DNA of 64,000 bases from Patescibacteria group bacterium (GTDB taxonomy: Bacteria; Patescibacteriota; Patescibacteriia; UBA1558; GWA2-36-10), in assembly GCA_041665505.1 (NCBI GenBank), contig JBAYIR010000006.1:1707-65706 (forward strand), in the 5' to 3' direction. Of this stretch, positions 3,116-45,140 are shown piece by piece. The notes under the pieces were generated by a model. The model did not search any database and was not told where the DNA came from. It worked only from the letters and a program-made list of their open reading frames with translations. A program made the position numbers and the translations under genes. Within the stretch, counting starts at the first letter, position 1. Each line of letters starts with the position of its first letter.

Positions 3116-3212
3116 AGTTTATTTTTTTTGATTATCTTCTCTTGCACCCATTACTACAAAAACTATCAGGAGAATGACAAAAATTAAAATTCCGATAATT
3201 ATCATATAATTT

Positions 3213-3734
3213 TTATTTTAAAATTATTTTAGCTACAGTCCTAGCAACTTTGTCTGGCCTTAGTTCGGAAGTGTCTACAATTGGACAATTTGACTGTTTA
3301 AACATTTTTTCCATTTGATCCAAGATATAGATATTGTCATCAATAAAAACGTTAATTGTTTTGCCAATAACTTTTTGAGATTCATCAAAAATTCCGTCTT
3401 TAGTATATCTTTTTTTCAAACGCTTACGAATTATTTCTGGCTGGGCGGACAAAAGTATTTTGACAATTTCTGGAGTTTTGTAATCTGGGAAGTCAGTCAA
3501 TTTAACAAAACCACAGACAACTATACTTTTATTTTCCTTTGTTAAGCTAGCCTCTTTTTCTAGCCAGTATTTTATCTCAGAAATTCTCCAATTACTATCA
3601 GCTTTTTCTGGCACACCTCTTTCGTCAAAATCATGTATTTCAAATTTTTCTATTGGGAGCAATGAACTCAAATAGGGTATTATTGAAGATTTACCAACGC
3701 CGTTGACTCCACTAATAAAAAATATTTTATTCAT
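3213..3734 (-). CDS. P-loop NTPase (AAA-family/nucleoside-kinase-like)
   Basis: 173 aa. Walker A 'GVNGVGKSS' at the N-terminus. ATGA overlap with the upstream gene. Confidence 0.5.
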   Translation of the reverse strand: MNKIFFISGVNGVGKSSIIPYLSSLLPIEKFEIHDFDERGVPEKADSNWRISEIKYWLEKEASLTKENKSIVVCGFVKLTDFPDYKTPEIVKILLSAQPEIIRKRLKKRYTKDGIFDESQKVIGKTINVFIDDNIYILDQMEKMFKQSNCPIVDTSELRPDKVARTVAKIILK

Positions 3735-4321: not shown

Positions 4322-5104
4322 TTAATAAAGTGTCGAGATTAAAGGAAAAAAGATTACATGTAGCATTATATCAGCAGAGAAGTGAGCTATTATTGCAAAC
4401 TCTAAACCTTTTTTCCAATAGAGCCAACCAAAAACTAATCCGCCAACTCCATTTAGTAGTAGGGCTCGAAAAATTACCAAGGGGGTGATAGTTGTTAGAG
4501 CCGTGGTTATAGGCAGGTGTCCAAGGCCAAACAAAATTGAGGCAATTATAATAGCTGACCAGACTAAAAAATTATTTTTAACTAGCTCAGTTTTTACTTT
4601 TACCAGCTTGCTAATTAGCCAGAGTATAAAAGTCATAAAAAATAATCTCATTATAATCTCTTCGCTAATTCCACCATAAAAAGATGCCAAAAAACCTTGC
4701 CAGATTGGTATAGATGTTTGTCCCATGACATTTACACCCAGTTTGATAAATAAAAAATCTAGTAAAATTATAATAATGCCAGCTAGACAACCCAGTAGGA
4801 TAGATATTTTAATAGGCGCCTTAATATTAATATCAATTTTTTGTTTATTAATATAGCCTTCAAGAATTGGGATTTTGAAGCCTAATTTTTTTGATAGTTT
4901 TAATCCTATAAATAATAAAATAGCAATTAGTATAAAGCTTTGGAGTATTGCCACTATTATTACCAAGGGCAATGGTACAGGAGCAGCTCTTAGTACCTCT
5001 CCTTGGACGGTCATTATATAGGGCATAATGGCAATAATAGAAAATAGACTGGCCGTTAGTAGTATAAAATATAATTTCCAGTTAATTAAATTTTTTAGGT
5101 TCAT
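4322..5104 (-). CDS. CPBP-family intramembrane metalloprotease (CAAX protease / Abi-like)
   Basis: 260 aa polytopic protein. Carries the CPBP motifs 'EEIIMR', 'FGLGHLP' and 'HFSADIM' (EExxxR / FxxxH / HxxxD). Confidence 0.65.
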   Translation of the reverse strand: MNLKNLINWKLYFILLTASLFSIIAIMPYIMTVQGEVLRAAPVPLPLVIIVAILQSFILIAILLFIGLKLSKKLGFKIPILEGYINKQKIDINIKAPIKISILLGCLAGIIIILLDFLFIKLGVNVMGQTSIPIWQGFLASFYGGISEEIIMRLFFMTFILWLISKLVKVKTELVKNNFLVWSAIIIASILFGLGHLPITTALTTITPLVIFRALLLNGVGGLVFGWLYWKKGLEFAIIAHFSADIMLHVIFFPLISTLY

Positions 5105-5247: not shown

Positions 5248-5276
5248 TTGACAAATAGTCTTTTATATTATATATT
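5248..5276 (+). promoter_or_regulatory. consensus sigma70-type promoter (TTGACA-17 bp-TATATT) driving the GC-rich gene 5391-5798
   Basis: Exact TTGACA at 5248-5253, a 17-nt spacer, and TATATT at 5271-5276, all in AT-rich DNA. Confidence 0.5.
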
Positions 5277-5390
5277 GTTCAGTTGTCAATCACGGCAGCA
5301 CTCAATTTTCGCTGGAGAAGCTCTAGTACTGTCTTTTTTCTGCAGGCCGCAGAATTATAGACAGGCTAGGTTAACAGGAAAGGACCAAGT

Positions 5391-5798
5391 ATGTTCTCTA
5401 CAGTCAGTTGGAGTGTCCCCGGGACCACAGATCCCGAATCCTGCAACATCTTCGAGATCATGGCCAGAAGTGCGCGTGGTGAAAGCACCACGGCGTCGGA
5501 GGTCTTCATCTCTTTTCACTACTTGCCCGAGTCCTTGGCGGTTGAGATTGCCAAACATCTCAACTCCCAGCAGGCCAGGATGTTCTGGAGGATTCGGGAG
5601 ATCGACCCCATGCAGTTCCAGCCCCGCCGAAAGTGGTGGAAGCCCTTCACCAAGCCGCGCGTGGTTACCTGGCGTGATTACGCCAACCATCTCGGCTTCT
5701 ATGATGACCAGTCATGGTGGGACGCCTGCAAGGGCATCTCGCATGAGGTACTGAGCTACCTGGAGGGCTACCTGGAGACTAGTAATCAGTCGAGCTAA
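5391..5798 (+). CDS. hypothetical protein, GC-rich orphan gene (no TM, no known motif)
   Basis: 135 aa ORF with 'AGGAAAGGACC' about 10 nt upstream. Its GC content is far above the flanks. The overlapping ORFs at 5248-5754 and 5355-5690 are off-frame artefacts. Confidence 0.5.
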   Translation: MFSTVSWSVPGTTDPESCNIFEIMARSARGESTTASEVFISFHYLPESLAVEIAKHLNSQQARMFWRIREIDPMQFQPRRKWWKPFTKPRVVTWRDYANHLGFYDDQSWWDACKGISHEVLSYLEGYLETSNQSS

Positions 5799-5847
5799 AC
5801 ACAGCTCGAGCGAAGTCCGTAGATTGATGTCGTTTCAGACGACTGCG

Positions 5848-5887
5848 AAGGAGGGGGAGCTATTGGCACCTCTCCTTCTTCTTTTTG
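5848..5887 (+). terminator. rho-independent terminator (GAAGGAGGGG...CCTCTCCTTC + TTCTTTTTG), copy 1 of a shared module
   Basis: 10-bp GC-rich stem with a 12-nt loop followed by a T-tract. It is preceded by 'CAGACGACTGC', which is identical to the copy at 9781-9828. Confidence 0.6.
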
Positions 5888-5943
5888 ATTTTAATATTAT
5901 TATAACAAGCTAGTTAGTAGCTAGGTTTTACAAAAAAACTAGC

Positions 5944-6981
5944 TTAAGCTAGTTTTAATTTTCTAACAATACTTTTTTTATCATCAATTTCTATTAAATC
6001 GCCATCTTTAAATATAGCAGTAGCATGTTTGGTCGCTACTATACAAGGTATTTTCATTTCGCGAGATATTATAGAAGCATGGCAAGTCAATCCACCGTAG
6101 TCTGTCACTATACCAGCCACTTTTTTTAGGCTAGGAATAAATTCGGGATTAGTCATGATAGTGATTAAGATATCTCCAGATTTTATTTTGCTCAGCTGTT
6201 CTTTTTTTAGAACTATTTTGGCTGGGCCAGCCACTTTTTTTGAGTAGGTGATAATACCTTTTAGCTCACTTACATTGGCTAGGTTTTCGCTAGCCAAATA
6301 TTTAGTCAATGTTTTTTGAATTACTTGGCGCTTGATAGTTTTGGTTTTGAGATTAGTCATTGCCAGAAGGTATTCATTTTTTCTCTCCAGTAGAATATTT
6401 TGATTTGGTAGTTTTTTGCTAGCTAGATATTTGCTTATCTCTTTACTATTCAAAAGAGTTAAGTCAATTTTTTTATAATATTTTTTTAAGAAGTCATCTA
6501 ATATTTGTAAATCATTTATTTCGTTTCTTACTCTAGCTACTAATTTGTAGTTTTTTTCTTTTATCAAATCAAGCTTTTTTCTTTCAGTGGCATAATTAAA
6601 ATATATTCCAAACATGTAATGTAACCAAACTTTTTCTGCTAGTCTAGCCAAAAGTGACCAAGTTTTAGTATTTAACTTTAATCCGGGCAATTGTTTTTTT
6701 AATTGTTTGTATAGCTCTTCGGCTTTTTTTAGCTCTTTTATAATATATTTTTCATCTAATGTCTCATAATAATCTATCAGCTTATTCATTTCTGATTTTT
6801 TGCGGATTAGGGTCATGACACCATCTTGAGAATAAAACAAAGCATTTTTAAATGTATGCTTATATATTTTATGCATATTGTAATAGCCTTTGATTATTTG
6901 ATTGGTAGAGAAAAAAGACATTTCTCTGGCAGCACTTTTGTGCCAATCATTTTTAGCTGATTTTTTTGATTTGGTATACAT
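5944..6981 (-). CDS. PEP-utilising-enzyme mobile (phosphohistidine swivel) domain protein with an unknown N-terminal region
   Basis: The C-terminal ~90 aa read 'GGLTCHASIISREMKIPCIVAT...DGDLIEID'. This matches the PPDK/PEP-synthase phosphohistidine domain (GGxTSHAAIIARE). The N-terminal 250 aa are uncharacterised. Confidence 0.6.
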   Translation of the reverse strand: MYTKSKKSAKNDWHKSAAREMSFFSTNQIIKGYYNMHKIYKHTFKNALFYSQDGVMTLIRKKSEMNKLIDYYETLDEKYIIKELKKAEELYKQLKKQLPGLKLNTKTWSLLARLAEKVWLHYMFGIYFNYATERKKLDLIKEKNYKLVARVRNEINDLQILDDFLKKYYKKIDLTLLNSKEISKYLASKKLPNQNILLERKNEYLLAMTNLKTKTIKRQVIQKTLTKYLASENLANVSELKGIITYSKKVAGPAKIVLKKEQLSKIKSGDILITIMTNPEFIPSLKKVAGIVTDYGGLTCHASIISREMKIPCIVATKHATAIFKDGDLIEIDDKKSIVRKLKLA

Positions 6982-6986
6982 AAAAA

Positions 6987-7490
6987 CTATTTAATAATAG
7001 CTATTATTTGTCTGATTATTAACTCATCAGCTTTTATATATTGTCCTTTAAAATCAAACCAAACTATCATAAAGTCAGTTTTCTTGATTTTTCTGATTTT
7101 GCCTATTTCCGGATCTTGAAGATAAATATATTTGTCATCTAGCCCGGACACCACCGAATAATGTCCATCTGAAACTTCTGACTCAGAATATTCTGACCTA
7201 CCTTTGGTGAACCAGTCTACAATCACGGGGACTTTTCTGTCCAGCCATTTTTCAATATCTTTGAAACTACTATTGTTTTTGATGATGACTTTAAAACCTA
7301 AGCCTTCAGCTGTTCTTCTGATGTCTTTATCAAGGACACCTATGTTTTTTTTCACTTGGCAAAGTTTGGCTAAATCTTTTTCAGATTTATTAAGGCCATA
7401 ATAATCCAAAACAATTTTTAGTGAAGCTGGTCCGCACATATTAGCGTTGAGAGTTTCTTGGAAGGCTTTAATTTTTAGGAATTTTTTCAT
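6987..7490 (-). CDS. C39-like papain-fold peptidase domain protein (standalone, no ABC transporter)
   Basis: Carries 'QETLNANMCGPASLKIVLDYYG' (catalytic Cys in the Qx5CGxAxL context). Downstream His ('DGHYSVV') and Asp ('LQDP') complete the triad. 167 aa with no signal peptide. Confidence 0.55.
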   Translation of the reverse strand: MKKFLKIKAFQETLNANMCGPASLKIVLDYYGLNKSEKDLAKLCQVKKNIGVLDKDIRRTAEGLGFKVIIKNNSSFKDIEKWLDRKVPVIVDWFTKGRSEYSESEVSDGHYSVVSGLDDKYIYLQDPEIGKIRKIKKTDFMIVWFDFKGQYIKADELIIRQIIAIIK

Positions 7491-7497
7491 AAATCTA

Positions 7498-8073
7498 TTA
7501 TTGTAAAATTTTTTCTAATAATTCAGGAAATTCTTCGGTGCCCATATCATCTAAACAATAATGTCTATGGTTATTCAAATTAATGATTTCTCCACCTAGG
7601 GCTTGATGGAAAATTTTTAAGCTCTCTTTACCAGATGCTTCTTCATTGTTGGAAGTAAACATTATTATTTTATCTACCCGTTCTTTGATAGTGCTATCAA
7701 TATCATAAGTATAAAATTTCTTTTTAATATCATCGCCTGTTTTAGGTATTTTCCAGGGGGCAACTAAAATAAGTTTTGCCACTTTTGTTTTTGTTTCACC
7801 TAACCAACGGACCAAAAAATTAGTAGCACAACTGTGGCCTATTAGGATGGTATTTTGATTAACATTATATTTTTCAAATTCTATTTTAAATTTGTCGTAG
7901 ATTGGCTGCCATGGTTCGGGCATTTGAGGAGTCTCAGTATTTATTCCTTTCAAAATTAATTGTTTTTTAAGCCAAGGCATCCAGTGCTTATTATAAGTCC
8001 TAGTTTTTGGATTTATTGCCTGTTCTTTATTAGAAACACAGCCATGAATTATTATACAATTTTTTGTTTCCAT
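7498..8073 (-). CDS. alpha/beta hydrolase (RBBP9/YdeN-like serine hydrolase)
   Basis: 191 aa. Nucleophile-elbow motif 'IGHSCA'. Begins 'CIIIHGC' like RBBP9-family esterases. Confidence 0.5.
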   Translation of the reverse strand: METKNCIIIHGCVSNKEQAINPKTRTYNKHWMPWLKKQLILKGINTETPQMPEPWQPIYDKFKIEFEKYNVNQNTILIGHSCATNFLVRWLGETKTKVAKLILVAPWKIPKTGDDIKKKFYTYDIDSTIKERVDKIIMFTSNNEEASGKESLKIFHQALGGEIINLNNHRHYCLDDMGTEEFPELLEKILQ

Positions 8074-8167: not shown

Positions 8168-8196
8168 TTGACATTTTGTGATAAATATTGTATATT
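8168..8196 (+). promoter_or_regulatory. consensus sigma70-type promoter (TTGACA-17-TATATT) for the GC-rich operon 8288-9772
   Basis: Exact -35 and near-consensus -10 boxes with a 17-nt spacer. An SD 'AAGGGAAGGAG' lies before the ATG at 8288. Confidence 0.5.
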
Positions 8197-8287
8197 TGGT
8201 CGTTGTGATAATTTTGTCCCGTCACGTTGGTTCTTCACATAGAAGTTTCGAACAGTCCCAAACAGTCCTAAAGGGAAGGAGACAGCG

Positions 8288-8830
8288 ATGTTTCGTTACT
8301 TGCAGAGCGGCAAGGCTTTGGTCGCGATGTTTGTGACGAGCGTGATTGTGATGATCACCTCGTCTTTCGTCCTGATCAACGCCGGCCCGGAGAACTCTCG
8401 GGTGGATTTTTTGACCATGGAAGGTCACGATTTGTTGAGCCTGCCGTCGGTCAAGCTGGCCTATGACTTCGCGCTGGCCGACAGCGTGCTCACCGAGAAC
8501 ATCGAGTTTCTCGAGCGGCAAGGGCTCGATCAGGGCCAGGTAGCTTTCTATGGCGACCTGTCCAAGTACTATCAGGAGCTTTGCGGGCTCCGCCAGCAGG
8601 TCCAGACTTTGGCTCTGGAGTACCCTGATTCGCTCAGTGGTAACCACAGAGCCAACGAGGAGCTCAAGCAGGTGGCCAAGCCTGTCATGGCTGCGGTCAT
8701 CAATTTCAGATCGTCTTGGCTGCTGGCTCACGCCATGCAGCATGGACTCAAGTTCTGGAGCATGGCTTTCGGGCTGTCGCTTCTCTTCTTCATCTACGGC
8801 CTGATCTGCTGGAAGCAAGGCCGCTTCTAG
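8288..8830 (+). CDS. hypothetical bitopic membrane protein (N- and C-terminal TM helices, ~130 aa soluble middle), GC-rich
   Basis: 180 aa with a strong RBS. GC-rich codon usage is consistent along the frame. The antisense and off-frame ORFs here are artefacts of the GC-rich DNA. Confidence 0.55.
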   Translation: MFRYLQSGKALVAMFVTSVIVMITSSFVLINAGPENSRVDFLTMEGHDLLSLPSVKLAYDFALADSVLTENIEFLERQGLDQGQVAFYGDLSKYYQELCGLRQQVQTLALEYPDSLSGNHRANEELKQVAKPVMAAVINFRSSWLLAHAMQHGLKFWSMAFGLSLLFFIYGLICWKQGRF

Positions 8831-8845
8831 CTCAAAGGAGCACAC

Positions 8846-9772
8846 ATGTTCATCGACAGTCCGACCTACAGCCGAAGCAAATCGCCACACTACAGGTTTT
8901 GGCGCTGGACATACCAGAACAGTCTCTGGAACCGGTCGGTGCCAAATTCCTACCAGACCTCACTCTGCCTGTACTGGCAGCGGATGTTCTGGGTGGGGGT
9001 GCTGATCTTGCCGGTGTTGCACCTCCTGTACTTCGCCACCGCTGCTGTGGTCTACGAGCTGCTCTATAAGAGAGTGGTCAGGCCCGTGGTTAAGTTTGAT
9101 TTCCTGGCCGCCGTGGTCATCTGGCTGATGATTATGGGCATGGTGATCTGCGGGGAGGTGGAAGTACTTTTGTTCTACCTGGTGGTAGTGTGTAGTTGCG
9201 GCATCGTCGGCTTGCTTGCCATTGTTTTCTTCTGCATCTACGCCAAGAGAGCCGTGGAGTGGTTGCTCAAGAGGGTCATCGGACCTTTTCTCTGGGAGCC
9301 ATTCATTTGGCTCTGTGATTTCAACTGGCAGGTTTATCGACGGTACTACAACCGTCGACATCCTCTGCCGGACGAGGAGTGCACGATCAAGGGTTACAAC
9401 CAGCTCATGGTTCACAGCCTGTTCTGGCTGCAATCTGTTGTGGTGGCTCTGGCCTTGCACTTCGGTAGTGGTCAGGCTCATCCCGAGCTCTGGGGCTTGG
9501 CCTTGAGCTGGATCATCTGGTACGGGCTGGCCTTGCTGCTGGTTAGCTTGGTCATCAACCTGCTCATCAACCGGCACTACGACAAGCTGGACAAGGAGCG
9601 GTACTACGAGCTTTACCCGGAAAAGCGGCCGGGCAAGAAGCTGAAGATCAAGAGGGTGAAATCTAAGCCCTATCGCGAGCCTTCGCGGTGGGCGCACTGG
9701 AGGTACGACTTCAACCAGTGGCGTAAAGCCACCAAGGAGAAGGTCTGCCCTCTGGTGAAGTTCGTGGACTGA
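8846..9772 (+). CDS. hypothetical polytopic membrane protein (~6 TM) with a basic C-terminal tail, GC-rich
   Basis: 308 aa, tightly coupled to the upstream gene by a 15-nt gap. Hydrophobic helices alternate with short loops. Confidence 0.55.
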   Translation: MFIDSPTYSRSKSPHYRFWRWTYQNSLWNRSVPNSYQTSLCLYWQRMFWVGVLILPVLHLLYFATAAVVYELLYKRVVRPVVKFDFLAAVVIWLMIMGMVICGEVEVLLFYLVVVCSCGIVGLLAIVFFCIYAKRAVEWLLKRVIGPFLWEPFIWLCDFNWQVYRRYYNRRHPLPDEECTIKGYNQLMVHSLFWLQSVVVALALHFGSGQAHPELWGLALSWIIWYGLALLLVSLVINLLINRHYDKLDKERYYELYPEKRPGKKLKIKRVKSKPYREPSRWAHWRYDFNQWRKATKEKVCPLVKFVD

Positions 9773-9790
9773 TCTCGTCGAGACGACTGC

Positions 9791-9828
9791 GAAGGAGGGG
9801 TGCTAATGACCCCTCCTTCTTCTTTTTG
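9791..9828 (+). terminator. rho-independent terminator (GAAGGAGGGG/CCCCTCCTTC + T-tract), copy 2 of the shared module
   Basis: Perfect 10-bp stem with a 9-nt loop followed by TTCTTTTTG. The 5' context 'AGACGACTGC' is identical to that at 5838-5847. Confidence 0.65.
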
Positions 9829-9866
9829 CTTAAAATAAAAATTTAATTAATTTTGGGCTTTTAATA

Positions 9867-9895
9867 TTGACAATATTGTTGTTATATGATATAAT
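9867..9895 (+). promoter_or_regulatory. consensus sigma70 promoter (TTGACA-17-TATAAT) for 9963-11582
   Basis: Perfect consensus hexamers with a 17-nt spacer, sitting in an AT-rich intergenic island inside the GC-rich region. Confidence 0.5.
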
Positions 9896-9903
9896 ATTTT
9901 GTT

Positions 9904-9933
9904 AACCAAAATGACCAATTCTGGTCTTTGGTT
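9904..9933 (+). ncRNA. 5'-leader RNA hairpin motif, copy 1 (AACCAAA-AU-GACCA-AUUC-UGGUC-UUUGGUU)
   Basis: Nested inverted repeat between the promoter and the RBS of 9963. It is homologous to the element at 10591-10622. Confidence 0.4.
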
Positions 9934-9962
9934 GGTACACTCACAGCTTTTTTAAGGAGGCC

Positions 9963-10586
9963 ATGATGGTTAGACTGTTGTTCTGGTTCCAAGTCGTCAT
10001 GGCTTGGATTTATATGGTGCCTCAGGTGGTGCAAATCACCAGAGGTAAAACTAACGGGTTGACCCTAGCGATGTGGGCGATTATGATGGGCTATCTTTTG
10101 GTCAGTCTCTCGTTGGCACTGCTTGCTTGGCGAGAGAAAAAAGAAAAGATTCGCCTGTATACCGTTATTGTCTTCGCACAGTGGGCTGTGTTTGTCTTGG
10201 TGTTGTTTGTTATGAGCATCAAGTCAGTTCACTGGTCTGCTGGTGACACCGTAGTCTGCCTGGCAGTCAGCATCCTTTCAATCATCACGGTAATGCGAAA
10301 TGGTCTGAAAGACCCCATGACCCGTGCTTGGTTGTCTGTTTGGTGTAAGGGTGTTCCACAACTTTGGGCGGCTTATGTAATGATGACTGCCCACAGCACA
10401 GAATGGCTACATCCACTCGCACTTTTTGCAAGCAACGCAACTTCGATTCCCAGGCTCGTTCAAGTCTATCTGCAAGGTAGGCGAGGTGGCTGGGACAGAG
10501 CGACTAAGGGCCTGTTTCTTGGTGAGACCGCCAATGTCGCCACTTGGACAGTGGTAACTATTGTGTGGTTTGTCCTAAGATTCTAG
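9963..10586 (+). CDS. PQ-loop-repeat-like membrane protein (SemiSWEET/LAB_N-like), GC-rich
   Basis: 207 aa with about 6-7 TM helices. Carries 'MVPQVVQITRGKTNGLTL', which resembles the PQ-loop signature (PQ...K/R.T..LS). SD 'AAGGAGG' before the ATG. Confidence 0.45.
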   Translation: MMVRLLFWFQVVMAWIYMVPQVVQITRGKTNGLTLAMWAIMMGYLLVSLSLALLAWREKKEKIRLYTVIVFAQWAVFVLVLFVMSIKSVHWSAGDTVVCLAVSILSIITVMRNGLKDPMTRAWLSVWCKGVPQLWAAYVMMTAHSTEWLHPLALFASNATSIPRLVQVYLQGRRGGWDRATKGLFLGETANVATWTVVTIVWFVLRF

Positions 10587-10590
10587 ACCT

Positions 10591-10622
10591 AAACCAAAAT
10601 GGTCAATTCCGACCACTGGTTT
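10591..10622 (+). ncRNA. RNA hairpin motif, copy 2 (AAACCA-AAAU-GGUC-AAUUCC-GACC-AC-UGGUUU)
   Basis: Same architecture as 9904-9933. The inner stem is changed GACCA/UGGUC to GGUC/GACC, a compensatory substitution. Confidence 0.4.
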
Positions 10623-10647
10623 GTCCTTAGAAAGGGGTGTCTCGAAG

Positions 10648-11067
10648 ATGAGAGAGAAACTGTTGGTTACGTCGCTGATGATGCTCGTCATGGTCAGCTT
10701 CACTGGTTGCAAACGGACTGTTGTTCAGCAGTCTGGCGAGCTGACCGAGTCGGCAGTGGTCGACGAGGTGATTTTCAGCCCATCATCGCACGGCTCTTCG
10801 GTCGGACCGACCATGTCAGGCGATGGTGGCATCGGCATCGCGGTGACTTCGGTCAGTATACCGGAGAAGTACGCAGTCGTGTTCCGTTGCCAGCACGGCA
10901 AGTTCGTCGTCCAGGGTACCAGCCAGAAATACAAGGAGCTCTGGGAGCGCTTGATCCGTGGCCAGGCCGTCACTGTTTACTACAAGGAAACCTACCGTGT
11001 CGTGTACGAAGGAGAAGAGCTCCTTTCCCGCGAGCTCATTGGTTACGATTTCCTCACCGCTAGGTAG
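10648..11067 (+). CDS. putative lipoprotein, GC-rich
   Basis: Begins 'MREKLLVTSLMMLVMVSFTGC', a signal peptide plus lipobox Cys. An RBS 'AAAGGGG' lies upstream. The track ORF from 10621 starts on TTG inside the hairpin. Confidence 0.5.
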   Translation: MREKLLVTSLMMLVMVSFTGCKRTVVQQSGELTESAVVDEVIFSPSSHGSSVGPTMSGDGGIGIAVTSVSIPEKYAVVFRCQHGKFVVQGTSQKYKELWERLIRGQAVTVYYKETYRVVYEGEELLSRELIGYDFLTAR

Positions 11068-11093
11068 TGCCACTGTCCATTCAGGAGGAAGAG

Positions 11094-11582
11094 ATGCTGA
11101 CGAAATACAGTCTGTCGAAGTTCGATCGTGGTAGCGCGGCCTATGTGGTCGCGCATGCTCGTTGGAAGCGGAGTAGGGGTCGTGGGCCTTCCATGTCCTA
11201 CCTCACCGAACGCAACCCGGTGAAAGCACTGGTCAACGCTCAGACTTTCCTCGTGGCGTTCGGTCGTCGACAGGAGCTGGAGGAAATGCTTCAGTATCTT
11301 CCGCTCACGACGCCCAAACAGGCTGCGGCGATGGACAAGCAGACGATCGAGCTCCACATTCGCCGCATCGCCATCGAGTGCAAGTCTGAGACTGAGCTTG
11401 CTCAGCGTTTGACCGATGAGCTCGGCTTCAGTGGTGCTCTCATCAACTGGTACGAACCGACCGACCAAACCGGCGTCGAGGCGCGAGATCTCGTTCGTGC
11501 CTTCGGTGGTCTCATCTCCAAAAACGGGGCCATGGTCAGTGTGATGATCTACACTCTGAGTGATGATGTGATCATCGTGTGA
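11094..11582 (+). CDS. hypothetical cytoplasmic protein, GC-rich
   Basis: ATG at 11094 follows SD 'CAGGAGGAA'. About 162 aa with no TM helices. It is translationally coupled to the lipoprotein gene. Confidence 0.5.
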   Translation: MLTKYSLSKFDRGSAAYVVAHARWKRSRGRGPSMSYLTERNPVKALVNAQTFLVAFGRRQELEEMLQYLPLTTPKQAAAMDKQTIELHIRRIAIECKSETELAQRLTDELGFSGALINWYEPTDQTGVEARDLVRAFGGLISKNGAMVSVMIYTLSDDVIIV

Positions 11583-11641
11583 TTCTGGCGGTCGCGCCAG
11601 AACAAGAGGTCAAGGCTTTCTCCTCAGAGAGAAGCTATCGA

Positions 11642-11680
11642 GGGCCGCTGACGTAAGTCGGCGGCCCTTTCATTTTGTTT
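11642..11680 (+). terminator. rho-independent terminator (GGGCCGC...GCGGCCC + T-rich)
   Basis: 7-bp GC stem with an 11-nt loop followed by TTTCATTTTGTTT. Confidence 0.5.
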
Positions 11681-11750
11681 AAAATAAAAAAATCTGGCCA
11701 AAGCCAGAATTTTGCTAGTGGATAATTTATAAGAAGACAATTTAAAATGA

Positions 11751-11781
11751 GGCTGCAACCGTGCTACGGTCGCAGCCTCAT
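11751..11781 (-). terminator. hairpin terminator downstream of csrA (GAGGCTGC...GCAGCCTC)
   Basis: 8-bp stem. On the minus strand it is followed by ATTTTAAATT. Confidence 0.4.
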
Positions 11782-11807
11782 CTGATCTCTAGTCCCGCAA
11801 GGGCCTT

Positions 11808-11996
11808 CTAGACGCTAGCAGAGCTAGCTTTCTTTTTGGCCTCTTTGTCGGCCCGGACTTCTTCTCGGTCGACAGGCACGTCATCGGGAGCTTCAATGCC
11901 GACCTGCACTTGGTCGCCTCTGATGTCGGCGATAATGATGACAATGTTGTCACCAATGTATATTTTTTCGTCTTTTTTTCTGGACAGGACCAACAT
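11808..11996 (-). CDS. csrA: carbon storage regulator CsrA (RNA-binding global regulator)
   Basis: 62 aa beginning 'MLVLSRKKDEKIYIGDNIVIIIADIRGDQVQVGIEAPDDVPVDREEV'. This closely follows the CsrA consensus (MLILTRR.GE...IGD...V.VL...G..V.IGI.AP..V.V.REE). The coding DNA is GC-rich. Confidence 0.65.
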   Translation of the reverse strand: MLVLSRKKDEKIYIGDNIVIIIADIRGDQVQVGIEAPDDVPVDREEVRADKEAKKKASSASV

Positions 11997-12065
11997 GGCT
12001 TCCTCCCTGAACTTGAGTCTTCCTTGAATCTAGCCTTGAGGCTAGGGCGAAATGAACCGGGGATT

Positions 12066-12094
12066 ATTATAGATTTTTTGGATGTTTTTGTCAA
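12066..12094 (-). promoter_or_regulatory. consensus sigma70 promoter (TTGACA-17-TATAAT) for csrA with a GGA-rich leader
   Basis: Minus-strand -35 at 12094-12089 and -10 at 12071-12066. The leader contains a CTAGCC-UCAA-GGCTAG hairpin and several GGA motifs before the SD. Confidence 0.45.
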
Positions 12095-22128: not shown

Positions 22129-23892
22129 ATGAAAAAAACACTAGTTATTTTCAGCCTATTTTTAGGGCTTTTATTTTGTCCAAATATTAGTCAGGCCGAG
22201 AGCGATAAAATCTCAGATTATAAAGTGGATATTTTTGTAAATCAAGATAGTAGTATCAAGGTAGAAGAAATAATTGCTTATGATTTTGGTGATAATTATA
22301 AGCATGGTATTTATCGGGAGATACCTTTAAGTGATTCTGTCCTCTGGCCGACAAAACAATTGGATATTAGTGATATTTCAGTCCATGATCAAAAAGGACA
22401 GCCTTATCAATTTGATGTATCAACGGCCAATAATTTAAAAACAATCAAAATAGGTGATCCCAATCAGACTGTTTCTGGAGAGCAGGTCTATGTTATCAAA
22501 TACCAAGTAAAGCAAGCTATAGATTATTATGATGATCATGATGAGCTTTATTGGGACGCCATTGGTAATAATTGGATTGTGCCGATTTTAAATTCACAGC
22601 TTAGTTTGCATTTTTATGAACCTTTAGCCATTGAGCAGTTTAAGCTAGAGTGTTATTTTGGACAGTTTGGTAGTAGCAATAAATGTGTAGATAAAAATAT
22701 TTATTCTGGTACTAAGGATAAATTGACAGACTTTGTTTTTCAAGCTGACCAGCTTAGTGCTAATTCTGGGGTGACTGTCCGGTGGCAGTTTGATAAAGGT
22801 TTAGTTTTAGAGCCAAATGCTAAGCAAAAAGTAATATTATTTTTAAAACAATATGCTTTGTTATTTTTGCCATTTTTAGCTTTGATACTGATGTTTTTTT
22901 ATTGGTATAAACGTGGTCGTGATCCAAAAGGCCGAGGCACTATCATTGCTCAATATGAGCCACCAGCTGATTTGATGCCAGCTGAAGCTGGTATTATCTT
23001 GGATGAGAAAGCTAATAGTCACGATATTTCAGCAGAGATAATACTACTAGCTATTTGGGGTTATATAAAAATTAGTCGTATAGAAAAAACTGGCCTTTTG
23101 TCATCAACAGATTATTTGTTAGAGAAAATAAAAGATGAAAATGATTTGCCTCGGGGGTATCAAAAAGAATTAATGGCCAATTTGTTTAGTAATTCTAGCG
23201 CAGACAAAAAACCTCAAAAAATAAAAAATATAGAATTAACTACCGGGGCTACTTCTAGGGTGTTGATGTCTGATTTTAAAAATAAAGCTTACAAATGGAT
23301 TAAAATTGTAGAAGATGGTCTATATAAATCAGTGGTGGATAAAAAATATTTTCCTAAAAATCCACACAAGATTAAATCAATTCATGCTTTTATTGTGGCT
23401 TCACTTTGTGCAGTCTTGATAGGATTTTTCCGCGACGTAAGTGTTTTTGCTAATCTGGCTAATCTTTTAGCTACTGGTTTTACTTTTGTGATACTTTATA
23501 TTTTTAGTCTAAAGATGCCTCGTCGCACTAAAGAAGGGGTCTTAGTTAAAGAATATCTTTTGGGCTTAAAGGAATATATCAATGTAGCAGAAAAAGACAG
23601 AATTGCTTTTCACAATGCTCCAGAGAAAAATCCAGCCTTGTTTGAAAAATTACTGCCTTATGCCATGGCTTTTGGTTTAGAAAAAAAATGGGCCAAGCAG
23701 TTTGAGGGTATTTATACAGAAGAGCCCAATTGGTACCATGGTGCATCTACTGGCGCTTATTTTAGTGCTGCTTCCTTTGGTGATAGTTTAAAGAGTTTTA
23801 GTAGCAGTTCTGGTTCGACATTGTCTTCCTCTTCTAGCAGCAGTGGTGGTGTTGGTGGAGGTGGCGGAGGCGGCGGTGGGGGTAGTTGGTAA
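22129..23892 (+). CDS. DUF2207-family membrane protein with a C-terminal poly-Gly tail
   Basis: 587 aa. Signal peptide, a large extracytoplasmic domain, several TM helices, and a C-terminal 'SSSGGVGGGGGGGGGGSW'. Confidence 0.6.
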   Translation: MKKTLVIFSLFLGLLFCPNISQAESDKISDYKVDIFVNQDSSIKVEEIIAYDFGDNYKHGIYREIPLSDSVLWPTKQLDISDISVHDQKGQPYQFDVSTANNLKTIKIGDPNQTVSGEQVYVIKYQVKQAIDYYDDHDELYWDAIGNNWIVPILNSQLSLHFYEPLAIEQFKLECYFGQFGSSNKCVDKNIYSGTKDKLTDFVFQADQLSANSGVTVRWQFDKGLVLEPNAKQKVILFLKQYALLFLPFLALILMFFYWYKRGRDPKGRGTIIAQYEPPADLMPAEAGIILDEKANSHDISAEIILLAIWGYIKISRIEKTGLLSSTDYLLEKIKDENDLPRGYQKELMANLFSNSSADKKPQKIKNIELTTGATSRVLMSDFKNKAYKWIKIVEDGLYKSVVDKKYFPKNPHKIKSIHAFIVASLCAVLIGFFRDVSVFANLANLLATGFTFVILYIFSLKMPRRTKEGVLVKEYLLGLKEYINVAEKDRIAFHNAPEKNPALFEKLLPYAMAFGLEKKWAKQFEGIYTEEPNWYHGASTGAYFSAASFGDSLKSFSSSSGSTLSSSSSSSGGVGGGGGGGGGGSW

Positions 23893-23910
23893 CATTTTAA
23901 ACAAAAAAAG

Positions 23911-23938
23911 AAAGGAGTCCGCGGTCGGACTCCTTTTC
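23911..23938. terminator. bidirectional rho-independent terminator (GGAGTCCG-CGGT-CGGACTCC flanked by A- and T-tracts)
   Basis: 8-bp GC stem. An A-run lies upstream and a T-run downstream. It serves the convergent DUF2207 gene and the small peptide gene. Confidence 0.65.
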
Positions 23939-23968
23939 GCACTCGTGAGCTCTGTGAGAAGCTCGCGT

Positions 23969-24142
23969 TCAGCTCACCGGCGTGTTCCAAGCACTGATGA
24001 TGTTGCCGACGAAACTCGCCAGCACCAGTACCACGGCGACCGCCATGACCTTTTCGATGAGAGAAGTCTCCTGCCACTTCACCTGAAACCATTTCAGGAA
24101 GCTGTGTGCAGGAGTTTCCTCCCAATTGTATTTGACCTGCAT
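23969..24142 (-). CDS. 57-aa GC-rich tail-anchored membrane peptide (type I toxin-like), not in the ORF track
   Basis: The reverse complement reads 'MQVKYNWEETPAHSFLKWFQVKWQETSLIEKVMAVAVVLVLASFVGNIISAWNTPVS'. SD GAGAGGTAAG lies upstream. It sits in a ~250-bp GC-rich patch within AT-rich DNA. Confidence 0.4.
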   Translation of the reverse strand: MQVKYNWEETPAHSFLKWFQVKWQETSLIEKVMAVAVVLVLASFVGNIISAWNTPVS

Positions 24143-24196
24143 TAACGTCTTACCTCTCGTTGGAGTGAGTCAGCTGGGGAACTTTGTATCTATAGT

Positions 24197-24225
24197 ATAG
24201 TACCATATTTTTGATATTTTGTCAA
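24197..24225 (-). promoter_or_regulatory. consensus sigma70 promoter with an extended -10 (TTGACA-17-TGgTACTAT) for the small peptide gene
   Basis: Minus strand. -35 TTGACA at 24225-24220 and -10 TACTAT at 24202-24197, with a TG dinucleotide upstream. Confidence 0.45.
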
Positions 24226-24261
24226 TATAGTTCAAGAGTGGGGATATATTTATTGAACAAA

Positions 24262-43460: not shown

Positions 43461-45140
43461 ATGTTAATTCTCATTATATTTGCTTTTTTCGGTGGCCTGA
43501 TAACAATTTTATCACCATGTATTTTACCAATCTTGCCAATCATACTGGCTGGGTCAGTCGGTAGTGGCAGGCGGAAGCCTTTTGGCATTGTTAGTGGTTT
43601 TATTTTGAGTTTTACATTTTTTACTCTTTTTTTGACCGCTATAGTACAGGCTACTGGTATTTCAGCTGATAGCTTGCGTTATATTTCTATATTTATTTTG
43701 ATTATTTTTGGTCTTACCTTGGTCTTACCAAGTATTCAAGCTCGTTTTGAACAATTGATCAGTAAATTTTCACTTAAGCCAAAATCTCAAGGAGAACACC
43801 ATGGTTTTGGTGGCGGTATGATTATTGGCTTTAGCCTTGGTTTATTATGGACGCCTTGTGTTGGTCCAATATTAGCTTCAGTTATATCTTTAGCCTTGAC
43901 CGGCACTGTTACTGGTAGTGCCTTTATTATTACTTTTGCCTACTCTTTAGGTACAGCTTTGCCTATGCTAAGTATAATCTATGGCGGTAGGCAATTACTT
44001 AATAAGGTGCCTTGGTTACTGCAACAAGGAGCTTTGATACAAAAGATTTTTGGTTTGATTATGATTATTATGGCTCTGCTTATTTATTTTAATATTGATC
44101 GCCAGTTTCAGAGCTATATTTTAGAAAAATTTCCTAATTATGGTTCACAATTAACTGGCTTGGAGGACAATGATATGATTAAAAAAGAATTGAATAATTT
44201 ATCACAGCTAGACAGTCTAAATAAAGCAGATAATTTAGCTCCAGAATTAGTAGTTGGTGGTCAATGGTTAAATTCTCAAGCCTTGAGTTTAGCGGAGCTA
44301 AAGGGCAAGGTAGTTTTGTTAGATTTTATGACTTATTCTTGTATCAATTGCATTCGTACTTTTCCTTATCTACAAGCTTGGCACGAATCTTATCAAGATA
44401 ATGGCTTGGTGGTTATTGGTTTGCATAGTCCAGAATTTGAGTTTGAAAAAAATCCAGAAAATGTAAAGAAAGCTTTAACAGAATTTGGTATAACTTTTCC
44501 AGTGATGCAGGATAATGATTTTGCTACTTGGAAAAATTACAATAATAAATATTGGCCACATACTTTTTTGATAGATTATAATGGTCAGATAGTCTATGAT
44601 CATATTGGGGAGGGAAATTATGATGTGACTGAAGCTAAGATCAAAGAGTTATTAGAGCAGAGACAAGAGGCCTTGGGTGAAGTAAATAGTATTGAAAAAA
44701 AATTAGTCATGCCTACTGATCAGTTAAATACTTTACCCCAAAGTCCAGAAACTTATTTTGGTTCTAGTCGCAACAATCTACTGGCTAATGGCAAATCTTT
44801 AACAGAGGGTATTATGGACTTTGAAATGCCTAGCGATATAAAAACTAATCGTTTATATTTAGTTGGTAAATGGCGCATCTATCCAGAATATGCAGAAAAC
44901 ATAGATAACGATGCTAAAATTATATTTTCTTATTCAGCTAAAAAGGTTTTTTTGGTAGCTGGTGCTGACCAAGCTGTGGATTTGAAGATCAAACAAGATG
45001 GTCAAGATATAGCTGATCATATTAAAGTATCTGATGAACAGCTCTATACATTGATTCAAAATAGCGCACCTGGCAATCATACTATAGAGATTATTCCTCA
45101 GTCAGCTGGTTTTAGGGCTTTTACCTTTACTTTTGAATAA
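43461..45140 (+). CDS. DsbD/CcdA-family transmembrane reductant transporter fused to a thioredoxin-like domain (DipZ-like)
   Basis: N-terminal 'LSPCILP' and 'WTPCVGP' CcdA cysteines in a polytopic domain. C-terminal redoxin 'MTYSCINCIRTFP'. Confidence 0.7.
   Translation: MLILIIFAFFGGLITILSPCILPILPIILAGSVGSGRRKPFGIVSGFILSFTFFTLFLTAIVQATGISADSLRYISIFILIIFGLTLVLPSIQARFEQLISKFSLKPKSQGEHHGFGGGMIIGFSLGLLWTPCVGPILASVISLALTGTVTGSAFIITFAYSLGTALPMLSIIYGGRQLLNKVPWLLQQGALIQKIFGLIMIIMALLIYFNIDRQFQSYILEKFPNYGSQLTGLEDNDMIKKELNNLSQLDSLNKADNLAPELVVGGQWLNSQALSLAELKGKVVLLDFMTYSCINCIRTFPYLQAWHESYQDNGLVVIGLHSPEFEFEKNPENVKKALTEFGITFPVMQDNDFATWKNYNNKYWPHTFLIDYNGQIVYDHIGEGNYDVTEAKIKELLEQRQEALGEVNSIEKKLVMPTDQLNTLPQSPETYFGSSRNNLLANGKSLTEGIMDFEMPSDIKTNRLYLVGKWRIYPEYAENIDNDAKIIFSYSAKKVFLVAGADQAVDLKIKQDGQDIADHIKVSDEQLYTLIQNSAPGNHTIEIIPQSAGFRAFTFTFE

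Follow-up and report, generated by a model that had tools for sequence, protein, structure and literature searches.

The window analyzed in this study, a 64-kb stretch of DNA assigned by its annotation to a MAG of a Patescibacteria group bacterium, has a mean GC content of 35%. Two stretches are outliers (5276-5901 and 8193-12050), each with 52% GC. The first of these contains an ORF of 135 amino acids (GC 0.56, GC3 0.76). As originally predicted, this ORF lies between a CPBP protease gene and a PEP-utiliser/C39/hydrolase module, and both neighbours were confirmed by Pfam. The GC3 of the flanking genes is 0.24-0.31, and that of 13 host genes across the window is 0.16-0.36. We refer to the segment from the promoter of the 135-aa gene to its terminator as the orphan unit. 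The host-composition genes at 5944-8073 stand between the orphan unit and the second stretch, a large GC-rich island. Among the ORFs scanned around the units, the Pfam domains were HD, AAA kinase, MFS, CPBP, PEP-utiliser, C39, hydrolase and APH. The Rfam scan of the window at gathering cut-offs detected two tRNAs only. The features are listed in Table 1.

Table 1. Features of the orphan unit and the neighbouring GC-rich units (window coordinates)
Feature	Position	Strand	Remarks
CPBP/Rce1-like protease	4322-5104	-	Pfam; one neighbour of the 135-aa ORF
Predicted sigma-70-type promoter TTGACA-17-TATATT	5248-5276	+	11/12 consensus matches; in AT-rich, host-like DNA
Structured GC-rich leader (predicted)	5277-5390	+	Homologous to the L004 spacer that separates the partner and 135-aa genes
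135-aa ORF	5391-5798	+	NCBI MFA6466946.1, WCV71_03735, on a 68,454-bp contig; rare uncharacterised all-helical family (modelled)
Putative leftover 3' end (six codons) of a 308-aa-like ORF	5810-5827	+	Non-coding here; GCG AAG TCC GTA GAT TGA
Predicted intrinsic terminator of the orphan unit	5847-5887	+	10-bp stem GAAGGAGGGG/CCTCTCCTTC with one G.U pair, then TTCTTTTTG
PEP-utiliser + C39 peptidase + Ser hydrolase	5944-8073	-	Pfam; other neighbour of the 135-aa ORF
GC-rich unit 2	8168-9772	+	Promoter TTGACA-17-TATATT (8168-8196); 180-aa and 308-aa membrane ORFs
180-aa membrane ORF	8288-8830	+	Unit 2
308-aa membrane ORF	8846-9772	+	Unit 2; MFA6466951.1
Paralogous terminator behind ORF 8846-9772	9781-9829	+	11-bp stem (9791-9819), T-run; conserved in L008
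Terminator motif common to both cassettes			GACRACTGCGARGGAGGGG
GC-rich unit 3	9842-11690	+	1,849-bp whole-module indel; promoter 9867-9895 (12/12, with TG); 5' hairpin 9902-9935; ORFs of 207, 148 and 171 aa; terminator 11640-11669
GC-rich unit 4	11740-12094	-	Promoter TTGACA-17-TATAAT (12094-12066); terminator hairpin 11781-11747
CsrA ORF	11996-11808	-	Unit 4; PF02599, 68.9 bits (cut-off 27), E = 3.6e-19

The coding status of the 135-aa ORF was analyzed with six distinct orthologues. In the 15 pairs, dN/dS was 0.16-0.35 at dS of 0.21-1.24, and the high GC3 was confined to the 5391 frame. Thus, the ORF is coding, and it is a real gene under purifying selection. Relatives of the protein are rare. 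Only five were found among 5.8 billion proteins searched (71-81% identity), and 16 of 1.84 billion cluster representatives were matched in an HMM search. About 12 of these 16 are small (99-160 aa) stand-alone proteins. The AF2 model of the protein is all-helical (pLDDT 84, pTM 0.79), and the product is predicted to be a small cytoplasmic all-alpha protein. No significant match was obtained by Foldseek against PDB and BFVD or by a profile search of PDB, and no significant fold or profile match to a sigma-70 region 4-like helix-turn-helix was found. Our best guess, a tentative one, is a helix-turn-helix-like regulatory or RNA-polymerase-binding protein. In addition, the six GC-rich ORFs were searched against Pfam, PADLOC and PHROGs, and no family was assigned except for a weak match of the 308-aa ORF to phrog_944 (membrane protein, "moron/host takeover" category; E = 6.2e-5).

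For comparison, the DNA of the five relatives was recovered as loci L001-L007, and two further loci (L011 and L012) came from the same organism as L001. A scan of genome contigs for the 135-aa family gave one locus. L008 and L010 are both from JGI sample 3300037810, and L010 is identical to the window. Wherever the recovered DNA reaches past the GC-rich unit, the flanks of the orthologues are AT-rich; L006 ends inside the unit. The Ser hydrolase is the sole flanking gene common to L001 and the window, with 27% identity as against 74% for the cassette gene, and no synteny between the window and the orthologue loci was found beyond it. Two distant members of the family were also analyzed. The member in L013 has an intermediate GC3 of 0.44. 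The composition of the L009 member (27% identity) is unremarkable for its contig, which is 13 kb long and has about 50% GC.

In L004 and L006, a GC-rich partner ORF is located directly upstream of the 135-aa orthologue. The partner family also adjoins the distant family member in L009 (27% identity, E = 4e-8, local search). Neither the window nor any of L001, L005, L007, L011, L012 and L013 contains the partner. In five of these loci (L001, L005, L007, L011 and L012), the orthologue is headed by a conserved promoter of its own, with a stem-loop (ACCAAAA...TTGGT) in the 5' leader. A type II toxin-antitoxin pair was considered and rejected, since the partner is adjacent only in L004, L006 and L009 and neither the 135-aa protein nor its partner has a Pfam or PADLOC match.

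The TTGACA-17-TATATT promoter, which had been expected to head the 135-aa ORF, is present. Like the terminator of the orphan unit, it is a pattern or fold prediction. The window contains 12 promoter sites with at least 11 of 12 consensus matches: four head GC-rich units (+5248, +8168, +9867 and -12094), and eight precede host genes. When the cassette promoters were compared by eye, no homology was visible outside the hexamers. The promoter architecture supposedly shared with the large island therefore reduces to the consensus hexamers and their spacing, which the eight host promoters have as well. A consensus promoter such as that of the orphan unit is the host norm.

The leader downstream of this promoter is predicted to fold at -36 kcal/mol (z = -3.26), and an SD-like AGGAAAGGA is located 6 nt before the ATG. 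The 5' end of the leader corresponds approximately to the final 10 nt of the partner gene that was lost. The homology of the leader to L004 stops approximately at the partner stop codon, directly after the AT-rich promoter. Therefore, the window copy seems to have lost the partner, and "orphan" is an apt description. The leader would be a remnant of the spacer between the partner and the 135-aa gene.

At the 3' side, the terminators at 5838 and 9781 are nearly identical including their 5' context, in agreement with the original prediction. The 20-nt string AGACGACTGCGAAGGAGGGG is found without a mismatch at 5837-5856 and 9781-9800, and the alignment of the two terminators shows 87% identity over 52 columns. 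The hairpin of the orphan unit (5847-5878; 5847-5856 pairing with 5869-5878), followed by a T-run to 5887, has a predicted energy of -22.7 kcal/mol (z = -2.85). With a GC-rich hairpin and a direct U-tract, it is a predicted rho-independent terminator by sequence. The stem changes had been described as compensated, and this was not borne out: pair 8 is G-C in one copy (9798/9812) and a G.U wobble in the other (5854/5871), so that only one side is changed. Furthermore, the 5838 copy lacks the apical U-A pair present in the 9781 copy and has a loop that is 3 nt longer, and the L008 variant of the 9781 terminator has another one-sided change, from A-U to G.U. Pairing is kept through wobbles, and two-sided compensatory change was seen nowhere.

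A 19-mer of the shared terminator occurs twice in the window with up to three mismatches (0 expected from 100 shuffles). Among 13 related loci, the 19-mer was found only at two orthologous positions, in L008 and L010, and a scan of IMG/VR with the terminator motif gave no match. The reservation that the motif might be a common terminator behind ordinary AT-rich genes thus does not apply to the 64 kb, the 13 related loci or IMG/VR.

The homology reaches about 27 nt upstream of the terminator, into the coding 3' end of ORF 8846-9772. The codons at 5810-5827 (AKSVD*) correspond to GTG AAG TTC GTG GAC TGA (VKFVD*) at 9755-9772, and a small hairpin between this codon remnant and the terminator is also inside the shared stretch. 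The whole stretch, compared with 9755-9829, shows 76% identity over 83 alignment columns. The junction between 135-type and 308-type sequence is at about 5805-5812; approximately 14 nt after the stop codon are still 135-type. GTG to GTA and GAC to GAT, two of the differences from the 308-aa codons, would leave the amino acid unchanged. The fragment thus probably stems from a 308-like gene that had diverged, rather than from recent copying of the neighbour. Paralogy of the 135-aa and 308-aa genes was rejected: no protein similarity was detected by BLASTP, and the sharing is limited to the 3' non-coding segment.

In all eight orthologous loci, the sequence runs from the stop codon into a CCAATTG-N7-CAATTGG terminator. 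The GAAGGAGGGG-type terminator behind the 135-aa gene was found only in the window and the identical L010. Because all eight orthologous loci end differently, the reused terminator is regarded as a local deletion or recombination scar, not as a design element. Thus, of the proposed common origin or construction scheme of the two cassettes, the first part stands in a limited form, for the 3' segment (5810-5890) and for the foreign codon usage that the orphan gene has in common with the island. The second part is not supported, since the orthologues in eight other loci carry another promoter-leader or an upstream gene, and all carry another terminator.

The AT-rich tail motif TTTTGYTTAAAAT has 11 matches in the window, as against 2.8 expected (none of 100 shuffles reached 11). 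Its sites include 9824, 11673, 21528, 23894 (-) and 45254, and it forms the tail of several terminators. We considered this motif as an attC-like cassette boundary and rejected it, because it also follows at least one host-gene terminator (45254, after ORF 43461-45140).

Within the large island, unit 3 is flanked by a 22-nt direct repeat, TTCWTTTTGYTTAAAATAAAAA (9820-9841 and 11669-11690). L008 is without the 1,849 bp of this unit and has a single copy of the repeat (L008 1013-1034). The identity between L008 and the window is 98% over 8808-9841 and 89% over 11669-12032. Unit 3 therefore appears to have been gained or lost whole, from promoter to terminator, between near-identical strains. At the orphan unit, no flanking direct repeats of 9 nt or longer were detected, and no recombinase was found near it among the ORFs scanned. 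The CsrA gene of unit 4 has a perfect promoter of its own at the island edge. Its homologue in L008 is also annotated as CsrA, and the ORF matches the phage CsrA-like family phrog_9500 (E = 1.4e-18). Since the L008 CsrA is only 85% identical in protein sequence while the adjacent 308-aa gene is 98% identical, the region is mosaic. The cassette leaders contain GGA and are possible targets of this CsrA.

The codon usage of the 135-aa gene correlates with that of the 180- and 308-aa genes (r = 0.62) and of the 148- and 171-aa genes (r = 0.54), and negatively with that of the host (r = -0.39). It is thus foreign to the host and similar to the neighbouring GC-rich island. Among singleton third-position changes, 19 were GC-to-AT and 8 AT-to-GC (about 2.4:1). 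This excess indicates that the sequences drift towards host composition, that is, a net decay. By our own estimate, free drift would give roughly 7:1; as the observed excess is below this value, some selection for GC-rich codons is possible. No donor genome was found, and every close homologue sits in a contig that is equally AT-rich, though otherwise not similar. Therefore, a GC-rich source is what we infer and not what was observed. Likewise, no related genome without the orphan unit at this site was recovered, and thus we infer the insertion as well.

Based on these results, we consider it likely that the feature is a horizontally acquired, self-contained promoter-leader-gene-terminator unit, moron-like in form, in an AT-rich Patescibacteria chromosome. 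A transfer from a GC-richer pool is favoured by the codon usage, the contrast in identity to the flanking Ser hydrolase, the drift and the distant family members taken together. The unit would be what is left of a more extensive foreign operon. At its 5' end, it would have lost the partner gene, which is upstream in L004 and L006, and a host-type consensus promoter would now directly precede the former spacer between the two genes. At its 3' end, the gene would have been fused, by a deletion or by illegitimate recombination some 10-15 nt past the stop codon, to the terminal 18 nt and the terminator of a diverged 308-aa-like gene, which would explain the match of the terminator to 9781-9829. 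Given the partner remnant at the 5' end and the 308-like remnant at the 3' end, the cassette would be a truncated and re-joined piece of a foreign operon. More generally, such units may come and go as whole promoter-to-terminator modules via recombination in similar AT-rich terminator tails. According to published work, Patescibacteria commonly have genomic islands and exchange genes horizontally, for the most part with members of their own phylum (PMC12455944). Nothing specific on GC-rich cassettes in Patescibacteria was found in the literature.

Several other explanations have to be weighed against this acquisition. The units might have been carried, as morons or as cargo of another kind, by a prophage or other integrated mobile element that has since degraded, so that the whole 5.2-12.1 kb would be one decayed element without independent islets. 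The unit layout matches the moron definition, the phrog_9500 and phrog_944 matches are weak hints of a phage, and one unit is an indel between near-identical strains. However, no phage structural, replication, integrase or transposase domain was detected by Pfam in the flanking ORFs scanned within 1-15.5 kb and the six GC-rich ORFs. No match was found in GenBank phages (megablast and tblastn), in IMG/VR (protein family and terminator motif) or in PLSDB plasmids, and the units are split apart by the host-composition genes at 5944-8073. We therefore regard a decayed element as unlikely. Still less probable is that the GC-richness is native and that these are lineage-specific genes kept GC-rich by selection, for mRNA stability or structure or for escape from an AT-targeting nuclease or silencer. 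It would account for a GC3 that remains at 0.63-0.77 in each of the six orthologues at dS of up to 1.2, for the GC-to-AT excess of just about 2.4:1, and for the similar one-gene-one-promoter layout in L007, L009 and L011. It would also account for the GC-rich stretch starting near the predicted transcription start and stopping at the terminator. However, such a sharp boundary is expected for any transferred unit, because AT-rich promoters and T-tracts are functionally needed even in GC-rich DNA. Moreover, the net decay towards AT persists, a relative with intermediate GC3 exists, and the conservation of the cassette gene (71-81%, as against 27% for the one comparable flanking gene) without synteny points to transfer between hosts.

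That the shared 3' motif is merely a dispersed genome-wide terminator or repeat, with no bearing on a link between the cassettes, is very improbable. Its AT-rich tail TTTTGYTTAAAAT is indeed general and follows at least one AT-rich host gene. However, the 19-mer is restricted as described above, and the homology takes in coding sequence of the 308-aa gene. An artefact can practically be set aside, be it a chance ORF in non-coding DNA of high GC, a chimera formed during assembly or an engineered construct. Although GC-rich DNA yields long ORFs in several frames, and 5248-5754 (+) and 5355-5690 (-) overlap the gene, the dN/dS values and the GC3 frame signal back coding in the 5391 frame. The same AT/GC junctions are seen in assemblies obtained independently (L010 is identical, and three separate assemblies gave L001, L011 and L012), and the natural divergence among the orthologues speaks against an engineered construct. 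A broader proposal concerns the units as a group. AT-rich Patescibacteria might carry a dedicated pool of GC3-rich self-framed modules (consensus promoter, 5' stem-loop leader, gene, strong terminator) that recombine between genomes and with each other at similar terminator/promoter junctions and bring their own CsrA, with GC-rich coding actively maintained, for example, against an AT-directed nuclease or silencer. We give little credence to such a chromosomal, phage-independent "moron system". Current evidence on the wider pattern of GC3-rich self-framed units fits standard horizontal transfer with partial amelioration.

The acquired unit resembles several known systems in part. By definition, a moron carries a promoter and a terminator of its own and deviates in GC content (Cumby, Davidson and Maxwell 2012, PMC3594210). 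Like phage morons such as HK97 gene 15, the orphan unit is independent, with a predicted sigma-70 promoter and factor-independent terminator, horizontal spread and deviating GC (GC3 0.76 as against 0.24-0.31 in its neighbours). Presence or absence between close relatives was seen for the neighbouring unit 9842-11690, in the comparison with L008, whereas L010 is identical at the orphan site. Unlike phage morons, the orphan unit lies outside any recognisable phage or prophage, no phage homologues of the 135-aa protein were found, and the unit is GC-richer than its surroundings and a probable truncated remnant of a two-gene operon. It shares with the genomic islands and single transferred genes of Patescibacteria (PMC12455944) the phylum, the atypical composition, the hypothetical or membrane proteins and, most likely, an exchange within the phylum. 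In contrast to these, it is a very small single-gene islet with an explicit promoter/terminator frame, a traceable recombination scar and no donor identified. As in integrons, short single-gene modules with a hairpin end are adjacent to each other and are gained or lost at the cassette level. However, the units have promoters of their own, the hairpins are canonical terminators with T-runs instead of attC, and there is no common recombination core. An integron gene cassette was therefore rejected; in addition, the ORFs scanned gave no integrase domain, and no flanking repeats are shared.

As a process, this is ordinary horizontal transfer without a new mechanism. The case would provide a base-resolved example of foreign-gene domestication in the ultra-small genomes of Patescibacteria. 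Foreign genes would arrive or persist as autonomous promoter-to-terminator units and then be trimmed and re-joined by short-range recombination, through which a gene may inherit the terminator of another gene, and whole modules would be gained and lost between near-identical strains. The 135-aa family, rare and unannotated (about 16 representatives among 1.84 billion clusters) and sometimes accompanied by a conserved partner, is a candidate for the study of Patescibacteria-specific biology.

Several additional elements were observed in the window and the related loci. The leader stem-loop, ACCAAAA-(inner hairpin)-TTGGT, is conserved and begins about 9 nt past the -10 box. It was found in the window at 9902-9936 and 10593-10624, in L001 at 3120-3150, in L005 at 464-499 and in L007 at 9946-9981, and is thus common to the 9867 unit, the intercistronic site before the 148-aa ORF and orthologue promoters elsewhere. 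The inner stem is inverted between the two window copies (GACCA/TGGTC and TGGTC/GACCA). This stem-loop could serve as an operator or stabilise the mRNA at its 5' end. An AT-rich hairpin repeat, AAAAGTGCYTAAGCTAATTTAAGCACTTTTAA followed by AATTTCAACTA, was found at about 3000-3040 in L001, 9820-9860 in L007 and 5785-5830 in L011. In L001 and L007 it precedes the 135-aa unit, and in L011 it lies apart from the 135-aa gene. It may be a dispersed host repeat or terminator.

In L007 (same as L002), a second GC-rich unit at 10680-11560 adjoins the 135-aa orthologue. It has a 12/12 promoter, and its ORF of 189 aa is preceded by a leader of approximately 160 nt. A fragment copy of the C-terminal 42 aa of this ORF (62% identity) is located downstream at 11811-11936. 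In L009, the contig of about 50% GC with the distant family member and the partner, a terminator-promoter junction, GGACTTTTTTATTTTATTGACTTTG, is repeated at 3490-3530 and 4575-4615 between consecutive single-gene units. Therefore, junction reuse occurs elsewhere too.

A tiny GC-rich unit (50% GC) is located in the window at 23895-24226 (-). It has a TTGACA-17-TACTAT promoter, a 57-aa ORF (23969-24142) and a terminator, AAAGGAGTCCGaccgCGGACTCCTTT with a T-run. The hydrophobic C-terminus of the 57-aa ORF may be a membrane helix, and Pfam gave no match. The host ORF at 22129-23892 (587 aa), for which NCBIfam gave no match, has a Ser/Gly homopolymer tail, SSSSSGGVGGGGGGGGGGSW, at its C-terminal end (23790-23892). 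The local GC peak at this position is due to the tail and is unrelated to the cassettes.
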